A DNA stretch of 64,000 nucleotides from an uncultured Gemmatimonadales bacterium (GTDB lineage: Bacteria; Gemmatimonadota; Gemmatimonadetes; Gemmatimonadales; Gemmatimonadaceae): contig CAWBZV010000003.1 of NCBI GenBank assembly GCA_963793305.1, positions 1,510,634 to 1,574,633 on the forward strand, read 5' to 3'. A model generated the notes under the pieces. It saw only the letters and a program-made list of their open reading frames with translations. It ran no database searches and had not been told where the DNA came from. Of the stretch, positions 17,583 through 26,011 are shown in pieces. The first letter of the stretch is position 1; each line of letters starts with the position of its first letter. The position numbers were made by a program, and so were the translations under genes.

Positions 17583-19434
17583 ATGGCCATGGCCGTGTCC
17601 ACCCGTGCACTGGAACAAGTCGTCGACGTTGAGACGCCGGAGCAGGTCGTCCTCACGTTCACGATCGCCGGGATCGGATCGCGGGCCGCCGCGGCAGTGG
17701 TCGACTCGCTCATCCTCCTGATCCTGTTCATTGCATCCAGCTTGATCATGGGCAGCTTGGTGAGCCGGGGGATCCATCACGTCTCCTCGGTCGAGTCCAT
17801 CATCCTTGCGCTCTGGGTCCTGCTTACCTTCGCGATGGTCTGGGGTTACTACGTCCTGTTCGAGGCGATCTGGGACGGCCAGACGCCGGGCAAGCGGGTA
17901 ATCGGTCTCCGGGTCGTTCGCGATGGCGGATATTCGATCACCTTCGCTGCGTCCGCGGTCCGGAACCTCACGCGCGCGCTCGATGCGCAGCCGGGTGTCT
18001 TCTATTTCGTCGGGCTGGTCAGCGCGATCATCTCGCCGAGTGGCAAGCGACTGGGCGACTATGCCGCGGGGACGATCGTGGTCAGCGAGCGCGCGGTCAC
18101 CGAGCGCGGCGCGGCGCCTCCGCCCATTCCCTCCGGCGGCACGGCGATCGCGACCACGACGTATCTCACGGACGACGAGTTTGCGCTCCTCGACCGGTAT
18201 GAGCAGCGACGCGCCTCGCTCGATCGGGTGCATGCGTTCCAATTCGAGTCCGATCTGGCGGACCGGTTTCGGAAGCGGGCGCCGTCGACCGTCGCGACCG
18301 ATCGCGTGTTCCTCGCCGAGTTGTGGGCGGCGGAGCGCGACGCGCGCGCCCGCGGCGCGGCGGCGCGCAGCGACACGGGCGCCGCGCGCGAGCAGTATGC
18401 GCTCGTCGCGCAAGGCGGAGAGCGGTGGCGCGAGTTCGCCGCGCGGCTGGCCGTGTTGCGGCGGGGAGGGCTGGCCAAGCTTCCCGAGGAAGACGTTCTC
18501 CGACTTCGTCGCCCGCTATCGCGAGCTCACCACGGACTTGGCGCGCCTGACGACCGCCAGTCGCGGCCGGGACACGCAATCCCTGTGGTACTTGAACCGC
18601 CTGGTCGCCAGCGGTCACGCGATGCTGTATCGCGATCGTCCGATAGCGCCCGGCTCCGTCTGGCGATTCATCACGCGGTCTATTCCTAAGGAGATCCGCC
18701 GGTCGTGGCGGCCGATCGTCCTCGCCGCGCTGCTGCTCTACGTCCCTGCGGTCGTCGCCTGGGTCGGTGTCGTCCGGGATCCCGCATCGGCATCCTCGTT
18801 CATTCCGTCCGGTATGCTCGACCGCGCGGAAGAGGGCATCACGCGCGCCCGCGAAGGAACGGGATACATCGCCGATGACCCGCTCATGCGTCCGTTGATC
18901 TCGAGCACCGTGATCTCGAACAATATCGGTGTGTCATTCAGCGCATTCGCCGGCGGACTCTCGGCGGGCATCCTCACCGTGGTCGCGCTCGTCTTCAACG
19001 GCATCGAGCTCGGCGGCGTCTTCGGCCTCTATCAGTCCAAAGGCATTCTGCCGCTCATCGTGAAGTTCGTCGCGCCGCACAGCGTGTTCGAGCTGACCGC
19101 CATCTGCATTGCTGGTGGCGCGGGCTTCCTGCTCGCGGCCGGTATCCTGTTGCCGGGTTCGCTGACGCGGCGCGAAGCACTGATCGCGAACGGTCAACGG
19201 GCGATTCGGCTTATTGCGGGTGCAACGTTGCTGTTGCTCTGTGCGGGAACGCTCGAGGGACTCATCTCCCCCATCCCTTGGTGGACGCTGGCACAGAAAC
19301 TGACTGTATCGGGGCTGACAGCGGTAATCCTTGCTCTTTATATCAGCTTAGGATGGCATGATGATGATAAAACGATCACTGGCACTACTGACGGCGTTGC
19401 CGGCGCTGCTCCTCACGGCCGATCTGCACCATGA
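17583..19434 (+). CDS. RDD domain fused to SpoIIM (DUF95) membrane domain, +1 frameshift at 18492-18498
   Basis: RDD: ETPEQV, AGIGSRAAAAVVD, GQTPGKR, KRLGDYAAGTIVV. SpoIIM: NNIGVSFSAFAGG, PHSVFEL. Removing one T gives EEDVSDFVARYRELTTDLARL. Confidence 0.82.
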
Positions 19435-19879
19435 TGTGCTGAAGGCGGTATCGACGTTCAAGATGTTCGATCCGTCGATGGAAAAATTCTTCGACGCGTC
19501 GGCGGGATACGCGGTGTTTCCCGGCGTGACGAAGGGTGCCATTGGTGTTGGCGCTGCTCATGGCGATGGCGAAGTCATCGTACACGGCGCGGTGATCGGC
19601 ACGACATTGCTCACGCAAGTGACCGTGGGCGCACAACTCGGCGGTCAGCAATACTCCGAGATTATCTTCTTCGACAGCAAGGACGCGCTCGAGTCGTTCA
19701 AGGGCGGCCACTTCACGATGGCCGCGCAAGTCAGTGCGGTAGCGGCCGCGGAGGGCGCCTCGGCCAACGCCAAGTACAGTCAAGGCGTGGCGGTATTCAC
19801 GGTCGCCAAAGGCGGCTTGATGTACGAGGCCAGCATCGGCGGGCAGAAGTTCAGTTTCCACCCCAAAGAAACGAGCTAA
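19358..19879 (+). CDS. YSC84/SYLF lipid-binding domain protein
   Basis: GYAVFPGVTKGAIGVG, VGAQLGGQQYSEIIFF, GGLMYEASIGGQKF. Confidence 0.87.
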   Translation: MMMIKRSLALLTALPALLLTADLHHDVLKAVSTFKMFDPSMEKFFDASAGYAVFPGVTKGAIGVGAAHGDGEVIVHGAVIGTTLLTQVTVGAQLGGQQYSEIIFFDSKDALESFKGGHFTMAAQVSAVAAAEGASANAKYSQGVAVFTVAKGGLMYEASIGGQKFSFHPKETS

Positions 19880-19949
19880 CGCCGCTCTACGGTGGCTGTC
19901 TACCCCGGCGCCGTATCCGGGCGCTGGGGCCGCGGGCGAACTTGCCCGC

Positions 19950-20291
19950 ATGCGACTCGTCGTATTGTGCCTTGCCGTTGCCTGCATTGCGCAGGGCTGC
20001 CGGTCCCCGTCATACGCCGAGTCTCCGCTCGCCGACTTCGATGGTCGCATTGATCGCGTCGGCGACCGGCTTTCGGGTAACGTCATCGCCCATTTGAGTC
20101 CCGGCAGCCCGCGTGTGAGCGTCGTGGGCTCGGTCTCTGGCCGAGACGTTCGGCTCTGGTTCGGGTCGGATTTCGTCTTTTCCGGCACCATTGATGACGC
20201 ACCGGATGCGGCGACCGGCGCGATCGCCGTCAGCGGCATTCTCATTGGACCGGACTTGGGACCTGTCCCCGAACGCTTGACGCTTCGCTAG
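19950..20291 (+). CDS. hypothetical lipoprotein
   Basis: Hydrophobic N-terminus with IAQGC lipobox-like site. Confidence 0.5.
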   Translation: MRLVVLCLAVACIAQGCRSPSYAESPLADFDGRIDRVGDRLSGNVIAHLSPGSPRVSVVGSVSGRDVRLWFGSDFVFSGTIDDAPDAATGAIAVSGILIGPDLGPVPERLTLR

Positions 20292-20303
20292 ATTGCCCAG
20301 GGT

Positions 20304-20645
20304 ATGGTGCCGGCTCAAGACGAGCCGACGCTCGCCGCGCTGATCACGCGAGCAGCCGACCACGCGTCGACCCGTATCCTGCTCACCTGCGCCGTTCTGG
20401 GCGCACTGACCGCGCTCACGCCGTGGGTGGTACGGACCACCCCACGCGTCGTGCCGACGGCCCTTGGCATCTGCCTCGTCGCGTTCGGAGTCCGTGGTCT
20501 CGCGACCCATGCCTTGGCCGCTGATCCGGCCGTCACAACACTGCGCGTGCTGGCACGCATCAGTGTCGGTGTCGGCGTCATATCCGGAGTCGTTGGCGCT
20601 TTCTGGCTGTTCTTCCTCGCCTACGGCAGCTCATTCTGGAACTGA
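20304..20645 (+). CDS. hypothetical membrane protein (3 TM)
   Basis: Three hydrophobic segments; co-oriented with neighbours. Confidence 0.6.
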   Translation: MVPAQDEPTLAALITRAADHASTRILLTCAVLGALTALTPWVVRTTPRVVPTALGICLVAFGVRGLATHALAADPAVTTLRVLARISVGVGVISGVVGAFWLFFLAYGSSFWN

Positions 20646-20671
20646 GCGGCCCGAACGTCCCCGTCAGGCAT

Positions 20672-21835
20672 TTGGCGTTCTTTCGCGCCGCCAGTGCTGA
20701 GCTCGAAGGATCGAGCGAGTACCGGACTCTGCTCGCCGGGGTGGTCGTCATGCGGCTGGTCGATAAGTGGCGATCGCGCGACGGCGACAGTGAGCGACAG
20801 GTTCGCGATTTTGCGCCCGTCCAACAGACGATCGACGCGCTCGATGACAGTACGCACCGGCGGGCGCTGCAGGCTCTCATCGATGCGATCAGCGCGCATA
20901 TCGATGGGGCCGCCGATATGCGTGTCGCGAGGTTGTACGACTACGGGCTTTGTCTGGAGCGCGACGCGCGCTGGGATCCAGCCGCGGACGTCCATCTGAC
21001 AGCGATCGATCTGACGCCGCAGAACCAGTCGCTCGTCCCTCGGTGCTGTCGACAGGCCAGCGCATGCTTCCGCAAAATGGGCGATCTCGACCGAGCCGAG
21101 CAACTCGCGCTAGATGGACAGCGGGTCGCCCGAGAGATGGGTGACCAGCCGTGGTTGTTGCGGTTGCGGATCACCGCGTCCAAGATCCCCTGGTATAGGG
21201 GCGATCTGTCGACGGCGGAACGATTGCTCGAAAGTGTCATCGCGGACGCCGACGCCATTGGCTTAACCGAGATATCCGCGGCGGCGTGCCAAGATCTGGG
21301 CGCGCTCGCCAGCGATCGGAACCAGCCCGAGCTCTCGGCGCGGTACTTGTACGCGGCGCTCAAGGGGTTGGACGACCCGAGCGAGAAAATCCGCGCGATG
21401 GGAGATCTCGCGGCCGCGCTTCAAGACTGCGGGTATTTCGAACAGGCGTGGGCGCTGTTCTCGACGGTCCGTCAGTCGCCATATGCCGATGCCGAGACAC
21501 GCACCTATGCGTCACTGAACATGTTATACGGCGCCACTCTGTCGGGCGAACGGTCGCAGTTCGATCAATTGAGCCACGAGCTCCGCGATCAGCCGCTCAG
21601 CGCGCGCCAGCGCGCCAGCTATCACGTATTTCTCGGGAAGGGCTATCTCAGGTTCCATGAGCCGTGGAAAGCTCGGGTAGAGTTCGCGGAGGCGGCCATG
21701 GTCGCCCGTGACGGCGGTGTCGTCAGGTTTCGGCGCGAAGCCGAGATGCTACTGGGAATGGGGCTCGAGGTGATCCTCGACGACATTCGGCATCGCCGCG
21801 GGGCGTTCGAAGAGGCGTTTGTCGCGGTTGGATGA
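20672..21835 (+). CDS. TPR-like alpha-helical protein, paralog 1 (start uncertain)
   Basis: Helical repeats GDLDRAEQL, GDLSTAERLL, GYFEQAWAL; collinear with the next gene over its whole length. Homology extends upstream of TTG 20672 (PNVPVRH from 20651). Confidence 0.75.
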   Translation: MAFFRAASAELEGSSEYRTLLAGVVVMRLVDKWRSRDGDSERQVRDFAPVQQTIDALDDSTHRRALQALIDAISAHIDGAADMRVARLYDYGLCLERDARWDPAADVHLTAIDLTPQNQSLVPRCCRQASACFRKMGDLDRAEQLALDGQRVAREMGDQPWLLRLRITASKIPWYRGDLSTAERLLESVIADADAIGLTEISAAACQDLGALASDRNQPELSARYLYAALKGLDDPSEKIRAMGDLAAALQDCGYFEQAWALFSTVRQSPYADAETRTYASLNMLYGATLSGERSQFDQLSHELRDQPLSARQRASYHVFLGKGYLRFHEPWKARVEFAEAAMVARDGGVVRFRREAEMLLGMGLEVILDDIRHRRGAFEEAFVAVG

Positions 21836-21839
21836 GGCC

Positions 21840-21870
21840 ACGGGCAGCCAAGCCCGTCAGTGTCTTGTTT
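21840..21870 (+). terminator. possible weak intrinsic terminator between the TPR paralogs
   Basis: ACGGGC/GCCCGT stem (21840-21857) followed by a T-rich stretch. Confidence 0.3.
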
Positions 21871-21900
21871 CAAGTCTGTTGTTTTTCGCAATTACATCAT

Positions 21901-23340
21901 ATGTTCGCGCGCGTGTTCTATTGCTCCGGTCCCGAGCGCCATACGTGGAGCGACGAGGCTGACGCGGCCCGTTGCTGCAACGGATACCGTCTCGTGCGCG
22001 GTTTCGAGGCCGAACCGGACGGGACGTACCGTCTCGTCCGCTCGTGGGAGCCCGCGACGGAGGCCGTGAACCACTCACCGAGATCCGCCCCCGTGATCGA
22101 CGCCGACCCGCCCATCAACCCGAACGTCCCGGTCCGCCACATGGCGTTCTTCCGAGCCGCGAGTGCCGAGACCGAAGGGTCGATGGAGTACAAGACGGTG
22201 CTGGCCGGTTTGCTCGTCCTCCGACTGCTCGATAAATGGCGGTCGCGCGTCGACGGCGATCGCGAGCTCAAGTTCCACGAGTTCGTGGCCGTCAAGCGCG
22301 CGGTCGAGGCCATCGCCGATAGTCCGGTGCGTCGGATCCTCGGTGAGCTCGTCAACACGATCAGCGCGTTCACCGACGGCTCTGCCGACACGCGGGTGCC
22401 GAAGCTGATCGCCTACGCGCAACTCCTCGAGCACGACGCGCGCTACGACGTGTCGGCCGATGTGTACCTGACCGCGATCGAGCTGGCGAGTGACAAGGAG
22501 CTCTTGCCGCTGTGCTATCAGCGCGCGGGCATCAGTCTCCGCCACCTGGGGGAAATCGATCGCGCCGCGGAGTTGTATCGCGAGGGGTTGGCCATCGCGG
22601 TCGAGAATGGCGATCAATTCTGGCTCTTGAGGCTTCGCCTCTCGACGGCACTGCTCGAGTTCCACAAGGGTGATTTGCCGGAGGCCGAGCGCCAACTCGA
22701 TGGGATCATTGCCGATGCGGACGTGCTCGCATCACCGGTGGCCGCCGAGGCGCGGCACGAACGTGGGCGAGTGGCCTATGCGAGAGACCAGGATGCGATC
22801 GCCGCCGAGTACTACTATGCGGCGTTGAAGGCGTATGTCGATCCGGCGTTGAAGTTCAGGGTCATGCACGACCTCGCGGGCGCGCTCACGGATCTCGGTC
22901 ACCTGGAGTACGCGCGAACCGTGCTCTCGGCCCTCCACAATGCGGCCCACGCGGACGTTGAGATGGGATGCCATGCCGCGCTCAACCTCATGCGCGTCGC
23001 CGTGCTGATGGGTGAGCAGGTGAAATTCGACCAGTTGCGGCGCGAGCTCGCCGACAAGCGCCTCACCGCGCATCAGCGAGCGCACTACCACGTGTTCGTG
23101 GGGCAGGGATACTTCCGGTTTGGCGAGCCGGTCAGGGCACGGGACGAATTCGCCCAAGCGTTGGTCATCGCGCAGACGCACCGCCTCTACAAGATCCTGA
23201 TCCAGGCGGACGAGTTGCTCAAGACGACGCCCGAGGAGCGCGCGCCCGCGTGGAAAGACCCGTCGCCTCGCCCGGGCTTGCTGGCGATACTCGACGAGAT
23301 CCGGAATCGCCGTGGCGAGTTCGCGGTGGCGACTGAATAG
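21901..23340 (+). CDS. TPR-like alpha-helical protein, paralog 2, with N-terminal Cys/His-containing extension
   Basis: GEIDRAAELY, GDLPEAERQL, GHLEYARTVL, GEPVRARDEF repeats; no signal peptide or TM; ATG 21901 follows an AT-rich intergenic region. Confidence 0.78.
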   Translation: MFARVFYCSGPERHTWSDEADAARCCNGYRLVRGFEAEPDGTYRLVRSWEPATEAVNHSPRSAPVIDADPPINPNVPVRHMAFFRAASAETEGSMEYKTVLAGLLVLRLLDKWRSRVDGDRELKFHEFVAVKRAVEAIADSPVRRILGELVNTISAFTDGSADTRVPKLIAYAQLLEHDARYDVSADVYLTAIELASDKELLPLCYQRAGISLRHLGEIDRAAELYREGLAIAVENGDQFWLLRLRLSTALLEFHKGDLPEAERQLDGIIADADVLASPVAAEARHERGRVAYARDQDAIAAEYYYAALKAYVDPALKFRVMHDLAGALTDLGHLEYARTVLSALHNAAHADVEMGCHAALNLMRVAVLMGEQVKFDQLRRELADKRLTAHQRAHYHVFVGQGYFRFGEPVRARDEFAQALVIAQTHRLYKILIQADELLKTTPEERAPAWKDPSPRPGLLAILDEIRNRRGEFAVATE

Positions 23341-23360
23341 TCGCCACCGCAACGTCTCGA

Positions 23361-23492
23361 TCAGCAGCTGTTGCCGGAACCCGCGGTAACAGCGCCACCA
23401 CAATCAGCACTCGTAGGACTCGTCGGCGACGTGCACGCGGCGAGCGCGATGACGGTCGCGAGGATGACGAGACGGGCGGTGCGTTGTGACAT
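23361..23492 (-). CDS. 43-aa small lipoprotein / putative signalling pre-peptide
   Basis: MSQRTARLVILATVIALAACTSPTSPTSADCGGAVTAGSGNSC*. GGAGG at 23499-23503 (6-nt spacer); basic n-region, hydrophobic h-region, LAAC lipobox. Below the ORF-track cutoff. Confidence 0.85.
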   Translation of the reverse strand: MSQRTARLVILATVIALAACTSPTSPTSADCGGAVTAGSGNSC

Positions 23493-23504
23493 GAACAACC
23501 TCCA

Positions 23505-23522
23505 GTTGGGGTGAGCCCCAAC
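23505..23522. promoter_or_regulatory. inverted repeat abutting the SD of the small peptide gene
   Basis: GTTGGGG-tgag-CCCCAAC, a perfect 7-bp stem. Confidence 0.5.
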
Positions 23523-23555
23523 GGTAGGCCGTCATGGCGCTATCGCATATGGTCG

Positions 23556-24689
23556 TTAGGTAGCTGTCGCCTGTCCGTGCAGGCCCGTCACATCGATGAT
23601 CACGCCCATGTACTCGGGCTCGCCGAGCGCATTCACAGTGGTGTGAGCCGCGACATGGATGGTGCGAACCGTGCCATCACCCGTGAGAAATCGCACGTCA
23701 TGATCGAGATCGCGACGCCGTTTGGCGGCGGTCGCGACGATTTCGTCCACCCAGGCCTGGTCTTCCGGATACACGCGTTGTCGAAGCGCCTCAACTGAAG
23801 GCTCCGGCTTCTCCGGATCGAGATCGAGAATCCGCAATGCTTCCTTGGAGCACAGGATCCGCCCCGACGGGACGTTCCAGCCCCAGCTGCCGGTATGCGT
23901 CAGCCGTTGCCCTTCGGCGAGAAACGCCTCGCTGCGTCGCAGCTCTTCCTCGGCCCGCTTCCGGTCGCCGATGTCCTCGACAACGACGATGCCAAAGCAC
24001 GGCGCGCCGAGCTCATCGCGGACGAGCGAGACCGCGAGGTTTGCCCAGACCACGCGGCCATCCTTGGCAAAGCAGCGTTTCTCCAGGCGGTACGAGTCGC
24101 GCTTGCCGTGCACGAGCTCCGTGAACACGTTCCAATCGGCTTCGCCCCGCGCCGGGTGCGTGATCTTCGTGAATTGGAAGGTGCGGAACTCCTGTTCGCT
24201 GTACCCGAAGAGGCTGCGGATCTGTCGATTCGTTTTGAACGCGTGGCCGCTCGCGTTCACGAGCGCGATCCCGACCGCCGCTTCATCGAAGAGCGCGTGG
24301 AGCTGTCGCTCGCTGTCTCTGAGCGCCCGCTCGATTTTCACGCGCCTGGCATTGCTGGCCCAACTCACCGCTCCAGCGCAGAGCACGAACACGGCGAGCC
24401 GCGGCAGCTGGTCGATGGCCACGGCCAATGAGCCGATGGGCGCCACGAAGAAATAGTCGACGGCGATCGCGGCCAGCGCCGCCGCGAGCAACCCCACGCG
24501 CCATCCGCCACTCCAGGTCGCGCCGGCGACGGCGACGAGAAAGAGCGTCGTGGGATCGACGCTTGGACGAAGCGCAATGGCGACCGCCAGCGCCAGCGTC
24601 GTCCATCCGAGCGCAGGCGCGTACCGCGCAACTTCGGTCCGCATGCGGACGACCGGCGCCTGCTGCTGCGCGATGACCATTTGCGTCAT
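23556..24689 (-). CDS. DUF4118 membrane sensor with two PAS domains, no output domain
   Basis: KdpD-type TM region (FLVAVAGATWSGGWRVGLLAAALA...DYFFVAP); PAS1 LFDEAAVGIALV...EDIGDRKRAEEELR; PAS2 EGQRLTHTGSWGW...MGVIIDVT; stop 9 codons later. Confidence 0.8.
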   Translation of the reverse strand: MTQMVIAQQQAPVVRMRTEVARYAPALGWTTLALAVAIALRPSVDPTTLFLVAVAGATWSGGWRVGLLAAALAAIAVDYFFVAPIGSLAVAIDQLPRLAVFVLCAGAVSWASNARRVKIERALRDSERQLHALFDEAAVGIALVNASGHAFKTNRQIRSLFGYSEQEFRTFQFTKITHPARGEADWNVFTELVHGKRDSYRLEKRCFAKDGRVVWANLAVSLVRDELGAPCFGIVVVEDIGDRKRAEEELRRSEAFLAEGQRLTHTGSWGWNVPSGRILCSKEALRILDLDPEKPEPSVEALRQRVYPEDQAWVDEIVATAAKRRRDLDHDVRFLTGDGTVRTIHVAAHTTVNALGEPEYMGVIIDVTGLHGQATAT

Positions 24690-24738
24690 GGCGCTCGAAA
24701 TGGTAGCGTCATAACCCGTTACCAGCTAGCTCAGCCAT

Positions 24739-25350
24739 ATGCCGCTTTCGTATAACCGCATCGCGGGCCAGAGTATCGAACGCCTCGCCGCTTTGAGCGA
24801 CGGGATATTCTCGGTCGGAATGACCTTGCTGGTGCTCGACCTGCACGTGCCGGCGCGCGAGGTCATTCACGGCGAGGCCGATCTCCTGCACGCCCTGGTT
24901 GGCATCGGGCCGCAGGTCGTGATCTACCTCATGAGTTTTCTCACGCTCGGCATTTTCTGGGTCGGACAACAAACCCAGCTCAACTATCTCGAGCGCAGTT
25001 CCAAAGGCCTGACCTGGGTCAACCTCGGCTTCTTATTCGCGGTAACGTTGATGCCTTTCTCGACGCGGCTGCTCGGCGAGTTCCCGACCTATCGCATCGC
25101 GCTCATCGCCTACTGGCTCAACCTGTTCCTCCTCGGCCTCGCGAACTACCTGAGTTGGACGTGCTCGACCAAGTTAAGCCTGACCAAGGCCGACATGCCG
25201 GCGGACGTGCCGCGCGCGATACAACGGCGGGTCCTGGGCTACCAGGCGCTCTACGCGATCGGCGCGTTGCTGTGCATCGTCGGCAACTCCTGGAGCATCG
25301 CGTTCATTGTGCTGGTGCAACTGACAGCCGTAATTGCTCTGCGCCGATAG
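24739..25350 (+). CDS. TMEM175 (DUF1211) family channel protein
   Basis: ERLAALSDGIFSVGMTLLVLDL, YLMSFLTLGIFW. Confidence 0.88.
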   Translation: MPLSYNRIAGQSIERLAALSDGIFSVGMTLLVLDLHVPAREVIHGEADLLHALVGIGPQVVIYLMSFLTLGIFWVGQQTQLNYLERSSKGLTWVNLGFLFAVTLMPFSTRLLGEFPTYRIALIAYWLNLFLLGLANYLSWTCSTKLSLTKADMPADVPRAIQRRVLGYQALYAIGALLCIVGNSWSIAFIVLVQLTAVIALRR

Positions 25351-26011
25351 CGCCCTCGGGCGTGTCCTCGTGCTTGAAGTACACGAATACGTCGCCTTGC
25401 CTCACGTGCGGCTCGACACGTGCCCTGAGCGACCCGATCTCGTACGTCTCTTTGCGCAGGCGCAGATAGGTAAAATCGGCGGTCGTCACGTCCGGCGTTT
25501 CGAGCGTCTCACTTTCCGCCACGCACAACGCAGCGTTCGCCGCTCTCAGGCACTCGTACACCGGGTCGCTGAACCACGACTCGTGCCGGAACTCGAACGC
25601 GTAGCGCGTGTCGCGAGGCAGCCCGTCGACGAACCCCCGCAGCCGGTCGACGTTGCAGCGGAGAAATGGGGGTAGCTGAAACAAGACGGGCCCGAGGCGC
25701 TCCGCGGCGCGAAGCGGAGCGAGCGCGTTGAGAAAACTGGCGGTAAAATCGAGCGCCCCATCCAACCGCTTGACATGCGTGATGGACTGATGCGCTTTGA
25801 CCGCAAACCGAAACCCGGGCGATGTCTGCGCAATCCACCCGACTTGCAGCTTCTCAGTCGGAAACCGCCGAAACGTGTAATTCAACTCGACGGAGTTGAG
25901 CCGGGTCGAGTAGTACCCGAGAAACTTGGACGCGGCGAGCTTCGCCGGGTACCATGATGGCTTCCAGGCCGGATACGCCCACCCCAATGTCCCCGCGTAG
26001 ATGGCTCCCAC
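25304..26011 (-). CDS. DUF72 domain protein
   Basis: GTLGWAY, SVELNYTF, FAVKAHQSITH, LGPVLFQLPP, FEFRHESW, YLRLR. Confidence 0.92.
   Translation of the reverse strand: MGAIYAGTLGWAYPAWKPSWYPAKLAASKFLGYYSTRLNSVELNYTFRRFPTEKLQVGWIAQTSPGFRFAVKAHQSITHVKRLDGALDFTASFLNALAPLRAAERLGPVLFQLPPFLRCNVDRLRGFVDGLPRDTRYAFEFRHESWFSDPVYECLRAANAALCVAESETLETPDVTTADFTYLRLRKETYEIGSLRARVEPHVRQGDVFVYFKHEDTPEGAIGAEQLRLSVAPAQ

Follow-up and report, generated by a model that had tools for sequence, protein, structure and literature searches.

Does a 43-codon open reading frame in an uncultured Gemmatimonadales bacterium encode a working peptide and, if so, what would read that peptide? The frame lies within a stretch of 64,000 nucleotides that was analysed as a whole (hereafter the window), and an earlier note on this DNA had proposed that its product is an exported lipopeptide with a possible disulfide loop, to be shed as a signal or displayed on the membrane. 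The comparisons described below favour, with a probability of about 0.6, an exported peptide signal and a cognate intracellular receptor of the TPR family, which would work like the Rap-Phr pairs of Bacillus. The gene family, its pairing with TPR genes, the cassette that holds both and a block of diverged alleles are read directly from sequence, and the TPR fold is taken from a structural model. The outcome is a widespread peptide-receptor cassette that is apparently undescribed. The features of the locus are collected in Table 1.

Table 1. Features of the peptide-receptor locus, in window coordinates.
Feature	Coordinates	Strand	Remarks
Tandem TPR paralog, candidate orphan receptor	20672..21835	+	Lacks a peptide of its own and the N-terminal extension
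TPR-family gene, predicted cytoplasmic receptor	21901..23340	+	Tail-to-tail with the peptide gene, 20-nt gap
N-terminal helical region of the TPR protein	22141..22494	+	96-100% identical among alleles; predicted output part
Diverged allele block: C-terminal ~280 TPR codons, intergenic gap and peptide core	22500..23400		~0.9 kb
43-aa lipopeptide precursor gene	23361..23492	-	ORF translation and family homologs
Gly-rich core, 13 residues, Cys-bracketed	23364..23402	-	Allele-variable; predicted signal
Pro/Ser/Thr linker, residues 21-30	23403..23432	-	Asp at its end, abutting the core
Signal peptide, residues 1-19, and lipobox Cys20	23433..23492	-	Pattern-based; nearly invariant across alleles at the window locus
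Shine-Dalgarno sequence GGAGG	23499..23503	-	6 nt 5' of the ATG
DUF4118-PAS-PAS membrane protein gene	23556..24689	-	Directly 5' of the peptide gene; position shared by 4 genomes of the genus

The peptide gene and its relatives

The reading frame, lipobox, Shine-Dalgarno sequence and C-terminal Cys pair are all present where the earlier note had placed them. Residues 8-19 have a mean hydropathy of 2.9 and run into the lipobox LAA/C, which has no Asp at position +2; the assignment as a lipoprotein is made from this pattern and from its conservation in the family. Recomputation gave the same mature product, in which cleavage by signal peptidase II leaves 24 residues that close with a 13-residue C...C segment and a terminal Cys. 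The rarity of Shine-Dalgarno sequences in the window holds roughly: of the 62 genes delivered by a crude gene caller, 6 have an SD-like word if only the best start is considered, and 11 if nearby starts are allowed.

The hexamer (codon-based) coding score of the frame is negative (-5.9) and Pfam returns no match to the window peptide, but the gene is judged real because homologs exist. A chance ORF was rejected on several counts. The genome of origin (5.72 Mb) holds 13 short paralogs of the peptide, and the search for relatives that the earlier note had called for gave 5-13 matches in each of the five same-genus genomes and was positive in 15 of 31 genomes overall, a tally that takes in the unpublished genome G012 (elsewhere counted in two tallies only, one of them that of the TPR family across the phylum). 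A profile built from 56 sequences retrieved 391 clusters (50% identity) among 1.84 billion representative proteins, and GGAG or GAGG stands 5' of 98 of the 113 family members that are paired with a TPR gene. Pfam and NCBIfam contain no family for the peptide and yield weak signal-peptide matches at most, and the ESM Atlas places the window peptide in three unnamed clusters, all under 0.9.

Around the gene, Rfam has no match across 19000-26000, and no consensus promoter or terminator was found at the peptide gene itself. A perfect 7-bp hairpin lies just 5' of the Shine-Dalgarno sequence (23505-23522), and its stem is kept in the related genomes G001 and G004 as judged by eye. Contigs from soil RNA libraries span the peptide gene, and neighbouring genes too, in three of the four runs compared (seven being listed), although such contigs carry no strand and may derive from DNA and are thus no proof of transcription.

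The family consensus consists of a signal peptide, the lipobox, the motif C-x-x-P-T-[AGS]-P, a variable linker and a Gly-rich core. A19, C20 and P26 are each present in at least 90% of the 56 aligned homologs, and T-[AGS]-P follows the lipobox Cys in 102 of the 113 paired peptides, the mature parts of which have a median length of 24 aa (range 16-49). Two additional Cys occur in 82 of the 113 and none in 30; the one apparent single is a counting artefact, that member having lost its lipobox Cys. Among the 82 two-Cys peptides, 29 carry an Asp immediately before the first loop Cys. The larger collection gives a similar picture, since 122 of the 148 clusters parsed from the best 150 of the 391 have two further Cys (with loops mostly of 8-11 residues), 23 have none, two have one and one has three.

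Because the extra Cys come paired or not at all, a disulfide is probable, and to this extent the proposal of a looped, signal-like lipopeptide stands. A disulfide as the defining trait of the family was rejected, as 30 of 113 members lack it and it was gained or lost about eight times. On a FastTree phylogeny of 112 receptors the loop label changes 8 times, with at least 7 changes forced, against a mean of 26.6 when labels are shuffled. The Gly-rich core persists in members without Cys, some of which carry it in tandem; exact tandem core repeats occur in 7 of the 113 precursors; and one ortholog (L119) lacks the lipobox Cys while keeping the loop. The changes of the loop, the tandem core repeats and the lipobox loss in L119 suggest that the active unit is the C-terminal Gly-rich core, to which the disulfide and possibly the lipid would be accessory.

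A convergent TPR gene as partner

What the earlier note had overlooked is the gene that converges on the peptide gene. In 62 new loci, fetched from 102 matches outside the genome of origin, a convergent lipopeptide lies within -60 to 200 nt of 56 of the 62 countable TPR ORFs (of 63, one was dropped for missing flanking DNA). As a control, the same detector applied to the genome of origin found such a peptide beside 13 of 2462 other genes versus 8 of 19 TPR-family genes. That genome contains 22 TPR loci, four of them frameshifted and one partial. A convergent short peptide accompanies ten of them, and at two the peptide lies upstream; at one more the convergent gene encodes a cupredoxin lipoprotein, and the others have none, so that 12 of the 22 lack a convergent short peptide (including the two with an upstream peptide); one peptide stands without a TPR neighbour. 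The tail-to-tail arrangement prevails in the family, and in four loci the peptide lies upstream of the TPR gene and co-directional with it. Of 201 Gemmatimonadota genomes sampled, 84 yielded a member of the TPR family, mostly in single copy and nearly all in two families of one order, with at most nine candidates scored per genome. Twenty proteins were looked up, and none came from a named cultured isolate.

The start of the TPR gene in the window is either the ATG at 21901 (479 aa) or that at 22141 (399 aa), the frame being open from 21832. Pfam TPR matches fall under the curated cut-off for the window protein and exceed it for several paralogs. An AlphaFold2 model of the protein is all-helical (pLDDT 90.5), with four helices at the N-terminus, then seven helical hairpins and a capping region. 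In a fold search with this model, LGN (Z 24.0) and Pins (Z 23.4) come first, followed by SprE and four Rap proteins at Z 20.0-21.0, namely 6t3h (20.8, over 319 residues), RapI (20.6), phi105 Rap (20.2) and RapH (20.0); NprR is also among the matches (19.3). The Rap chains, which combine a three-helix bundle at the N-terminus with a C-terminal TPR domain and score below LGN and Pins, align from model residue 23-25 onwards over nearly the whole length (rmsd 5.6-7.2), and for pLS20 Rap and RapH the alignment begins at the N-terminal helices. Z scores of this size are common among TPR superhelices, and no Rap protein appears by sequence among the best 60 of 141 matches to the TPR protein; homology to Rap is therefore possible at most.

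Since only one of 112 family members has a 19-residue segment above a hydropathy of 1.8, the TPR protein is predicted to be cytoplasmic. The conserved polar residues of the family are R141, H213, R247 and D251. No Gln column is conserved at 75% or more in the 112 aligned proteins, and the positions equivalent to RapJ N225, the conserved groove Asn that contacts the backbone of the bound peptide, are, in registers set by eye, D in 58% (214), D in 91% (251) and N in 60% or E in 30% (289). Prediction of a complex between TPR residues 5-400 and peptide residues 14-43 gave scores of 0.09 and 0.01, where the mark was 0.32; these values speak neither for nor against binding.

Six TPR paralogs carry an N-terminal extension of about 50 aa (21901-22060, plus strand, in the window) with the motif C-x-G-P-x-x-H-x-W...C-C, which is confined to the genus of origin among the loci examined and is possibly a metal-binding module. 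The ESM Atlas has nothing for this extension, which also stays under a pLDDT of 50 when the full-length TPR protein is folded from its sequence alone.

Alleles at the window locus

Two relatives compared with the window are about 96% identical to it in the flanks and 60-93% identical per 60-nt bin from about 22500 to 23400. Within the TPR core, dS is 0.13-0.17 over the first 125 codons, with 0-2 amino-acid changes, and 0.50-0.96 past them, with a dN of 0.09-0.16. At its other end the block stops within the peptide gene, at the first loop Cys; peptide codons 1-31 show 1-2 nonsynonymous changes among alleles, and the core differs in all three genomes. Ten sequences of the locus (seven public orthologs and three genomes) fall into seven C-terminal classes that are 72-85% identical to one another, and in the public orthologs the N-terminal part is 96-100% identical. 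The same block pattern recurs at two other loci, where the AraC gene is spared, and four comparisons with identical cores show no dip in identity.

Among three close genomes, TPR proteins are 92-99.5% identical in the 10 comparisons that share a core and 78-86% identical in the 6 with differing cores, giving a correlation of TPR with core identity of rho 0.85 over 16 non-independent comparisons. Against the more distant G005 the correlation is gone (rho -0.10, n=19). Presumed groove positions hold no significant excess of allelic changes (13/36 versus 41/168, p=0.15; registers by eye). Because dN/dS in the block is below 1, it looks like a set of old alleles exchanged by recombination, not like the product of recent positive selection. 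Co-divergence could come from linkage alone within such a recombined block; cognate pairing is favoured because the block edges coincide with one and the same set of functional boundaries at three separate loci. Contigs from the soil RNA libraries depart from the window at the same point, and one run contains three different cores, which shows coexisting alleles, not expression. The tandem TPR paralog (20672-21835, plus strand) also has very different alleles, its DNA being 94-98% identical to G004 and 50-62% to G001.

These alleles bear on three other explanations. According to the first, the peptide never passes between cells, and the TPR protein senses unexported precursor or a recycled periplasmic fragment, thereby reporting on Sec export, lipoprotein maturation or disulfide status in its own envelope. 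The pairing and cassette data would fit such a monitor equally well, the lipid anchor kept in at least 90% of aligned members would limit diffusion, and most members have a redox-sensitive Cys pair. It is nonetheless unlikely, as it leaves at least seven coexisting, deeply diverged alleles at one locus unexplained, which suggest selection between cells, and as the Cys pair is dispensable in about eight lineages and the lipobox Cys is lost in one ortholog.

A polymorphic toxin and its immunity protein, or a device for contact-dependent kin recognition, would also swap a variable C-terminal tip together with an adjacent partner. Here the lipopeptide would pass between touching cells, much as myxobacterial lipoprotein toxins do, and the TPR protein would neutralise the cognate form; a lipoprotein without Asp at +2 and the presence of LolA agree with this. 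The tip, however, is 10-14 mostly Gly, Ser and Thr residues with no catalytic or membrane-active character, and the partner has an invariant N-terminal part and is accompanied by a transcription factor and a receiver protein, for which an immunity gene would have no use. This account appears decidedly improbable.

The third alternative takes up the membrane display considered in the earlier note. A lipobox, a flexible linker and a disulfide loop form an architecture suited to a loop shown at the surface, to be read by another membrane or periplasmic receptor, with the TPR gene linked for some other reason. A gene for a membrane PAS protein lies directly 5' of the peptide in the window and in three relatives, and four loci have a cupredoxin lipoprotein of 140-145 aa with a similar Cys-bracketed segment in the peptide's place. 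Yet the diverged block does not reach the PAS gene, which adjoins the peptide gene in four genomes only, and it is the C-terminal region of the TPR protein, and no membrane protein, that changes with the core at three loci. Since this co-varying partner has neither a signal nor a transmembrane segment, pure display has lost ground and is rated very unlikely.

The PAS protein itself has no output domain, and its gene is 63 nt from that of the peptide and co-directional with it in four genomes. At the cupredoxin loci (L007:5339-5773, minus strand, and also L080, L109 and L123), the TPR partner is a convergent lipoprotein that contains a Cys-bracketed Gly-rich segment in its interior; it may be a peptide precursor joined to a copper domain.

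The ancestral cassette

Clustering of 383 neighbours of the 113 TPR-peptide pairs revealed further genes that the earlier note had not seen. Beyond the genus, 57 of the 63 loci whose neighbour was called (55 of 59 genomes) have an AraC-type (HTH_18) gene in divergent orientation to the peptide gene, and a single-domain receiver with intact catalytic motifs follows the AraC gene in 46 of 55. The N-terminus of the AraC protein is itself receiver-like (hhalign 89%, E 2e-6), with the acidic pair and the Lys missing from its consensus. A direct repeat with a 21-bp period lies about 113 nt 5' of the peptide start in 42 of the 57 AraC loci outside the genus. None of the 57 has it on the reverse strand, shuffled sequences give 0.1, and among 13 loci that lack the AraC gene it occurs in 2; the motif was chosen by eye from the very sequences counted, so that the count is not an independent one. 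For an AraC-family regulator, tandem half-sites with a spacing of about 21 bp are described in the available part of one report (PMC13292587).

Within the genus the AraC gene is kept in 18 of 43 loci. The repeat is absent from all 43, the window included, and a strict pattern found no copy elsewhere in the genome of origin. The window copy also lacks the AraC gene and the lone receiver. It would therefore be a two-gene derivative with several coexisting specificity alleles, whose target must be encoded elsewhere.

No conserved neighbour is a protease. An SBP_bac_5 (OppA/DppA-like) gene lies directly 5' of the TPR gene in L144, L145 and L146 (and L180), and all three such neighbours scanned matched that family; the protein encoded upstream of the TPR gene in three genomes is a candidate importer.

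As the earlier note had stated, there is no maturase beside the window gene, which is flanked by the TPR gene and the DUF4118-PAS-PAS gene. Nor is there a modifying enzyme or RRE protein beside it or among the conserved neighbour clusters displayed for the 113 pairs. This weighs against a further set of explanations, in which the active product is cut from the signal peptide or is a RiPP matured by a distant enzyme. Enterococcal pheromones derive from lipoprotein signal peptides, the precursor here is a lipoprotein, and one pair of TPR and AraC paralogs adjoins a lasso-peptide-like cluster. A pheromone derived from the signal peptide was rejected because residues 1-31 are near-constant among alleles, with 1-2 nonsynonymous changes while the receptors differ by about 20% C-terminally. 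The RiPP precursor that the earlier note had offered as an alternative was likewise set aside for want of a conserved modifying-enzyme neighbour. Both versions are highly improbable.

Proposed mechanism

How the preferred arrangement of exported signal and intracellular receptor would operate can be outlined in steps. Sec export, lipidation and cleavage at Cys20 would come first, as suggested by the lipobox and by the presence of the Lgt, LspA and LolA families in the genome, which also encodes a DsbA-like thioredoxin and two SBP_bac_5 matches. The paired occurrence of the tail Cys suggests that they would then form a disulfide in the periplasm, and its role would be confined to the outside because the cytoplasm would reduce the ring. 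A protease cutting in or after the Pro/Ser/Thr linker, often near Asp, may free a Gly-rich core of 10-14 residues, which would be re-imported, plausibly via an Opp/Dpp-type transporter. Inside the cell, co-segregation suggests binding of the core by the C-terminal TPR superhelix of the cognate receptor. The conserved N-terminal helices of the receptor would in turn control a partner, which synteny suggests to be the atypical-receiver AraC protein, the lone receiver or both, and the AraC protein may feed back on the peptide promoter via the 21-bp direct repeat. Release, re-import, binding and output are thus all inferred from sequence. Counted against this scheme are the higher fold scores of LGN and Pins than of Rap, the lack of Rap proteins among the best 60 of 141 sequence matches, the possibility that linkage produced the co-divergence, the dN/dS below 1, the 12 of 22 TPR loci in the genome of origin with no convergent short peptide, the null result with G005, the lack of a conserved protease neighbour, the non-significant groove test and the absence of the repeat in the genus.

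Relation to known peptide-receptor systems

The genomic signature of RRNPP systems, in the available part of PMC10075063, comprises five criteria, with secretion by SPI at the strict level and SPII accepted at a relaxed level. Four of the five are found outright at this locus. The propeptide has 43 aa (10-100 aa in the signature); the receptor has 399-479 aa depending on the start (about 250-500 aa); TPR repeats are indicated by Pfam in paralogs and by the superhelix of the model and the fold search; and receptor and propeptide are direct neighbours, with a 20-nt gap in the window and the pairing frequencies given above (56/62 versus 13/2462). The fifth, secretion, is predicted by pattern, from a basic N-region, a hydrophobic stretch and the lipobox, at the relaxed SPII level only.

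The likeness to Rap-Phr extends to several features. In both, a small propeptide, whose export by Sec is a prediction here, is encoded beside an all-helical TPR protein of about 400 aa with an N-terminal helical part and no HTH, and paralogs and orphans are numerous within a genome (here 22 TPR loci and 13 peptides). Receiver-domain proteins are linked as candidate targets. Rap binds Spo0F or ComA according to the sections available of PMC3601965, and intragenic duplication of the core, as seen here, is known from Phr in the accessible portions of PMC5199041 and PMC11343458.

The differences are as clear. The present pairs belong to a diderm phylum, with SPII-type precursors as the rule and an optional disulfide loop. 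The genes are tail-to-tail and were ancestrally fixed in a cassette with an atypical-receiver AraC regulator, whereas phr lies downstream of rap and is co-directional with it. Rap genes also occur on Bacillus plasmids and phages, whereas the TPR proteins of this family had no match in plasmid or phage collections. Among assignable RRNPPA propeptides, SPII-type precursors make up about 8% (211 of 2,734) in the part of PMC9765709 available. The catalytic Gln for dephosphorylation of Spo0F (Q47 in RapH) is not conserved here, although it is needed by the phosphatase Raps only, as stated in the accessible part of PMC3601965. By analogy, the pair may work like Rap-Phr, yet it is not classed as Rap because orientation and catalytic Gln disagree and homology is possible at most.

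With RRNPP systems at large (NprR-NprX, PlcR-PapR, Rgg-SHP and AimR-AimP), the locus appears to share the signature at the relaxed level, and NprR is among the fold matches. Those systems are described, in the literature as far as available, from Firmicutes and their mobile elements, whereas this one belongs to Gemmatimonadota; its receptor has no DNA-binding domain, and transcriptional output would reside on a separate gene. A different parallel is provided by staphylococcal agr and Bacillus ComQXP, in which a hypervariable signal and the sensing part are exchanged as a unit between conserved flanks. Here, too, the predicted signal and the predicted sensing part of the receptor swap as one block between conserved flanks. 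The signals of agr are small macrocycles, and agr and ComQXP use membrane histidine kinases and dedicated maturases; here the partner that varies with the signal is soluble, a TPR protein, and a disulfide would close the ring.

A literature search outside subscription journals found no report of RRNPP systems in Gemmatimonads or of Gram-negative quorum sensing by peptides from lipoprotein precursors, and the part of the supplement to PMC10075063 available has no Gemmatimonad entry. Known peptide signals with cytoplasmic TPR receptors are from Firmicutes only in the literature found, as far as its text was available. If the preferred reading is true, such communication extends to a diderm phylum that is common in soil and whose regulation is poorly studied, and very small lipoproteins, overlooked or labelled 'hypothetical', gain a role as signal precursors. 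A bolder and more tentative proposal, at somewhat less than even odds, is that peptide quorum sensing in Gemmatimonadota evolved independently of the Firmicutes RRNPP systems with a design for two membranes. This design would combine lipoprotein-route export, an optional disulfide that protects the core once released, a TPR receptor leading to AraC feedback, and swappable tail-to-tail pherotype cassettes, many of which would coexist in soil. The natural allele series at the window locus would be a ready set of presumed cognate and non-cognate pairs for testing.

Unusual loci of the family

Four TPR paralogs in the genome of origin are frameshifted (L015, L016, L017 and L002:15212-16289), and the L017 peptide reads past the usual stop. 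The orthologs of L015 and L017 are intact in G001 and G004, and the frameshifts and the readthrough reflect either decay or assembly error. At L148:5344-5769 and in 18 other genomes of the second family, the TPR gene has a prepilin-like (N_methyl) gene in divergent orientation, often with a receiver-HD-GYP gene nearby, which may be plain synteny. Lastly, the TPR and AraC paralogs at L002:3608-13214 stand ahead of the lasso-peptide-like cluster, which contains PqqD, transglutaminase-like and Asn-synthase-like proteins and a 39-aa candidate precursor, together with a TonB receptor/FecR/ECF sigma set.
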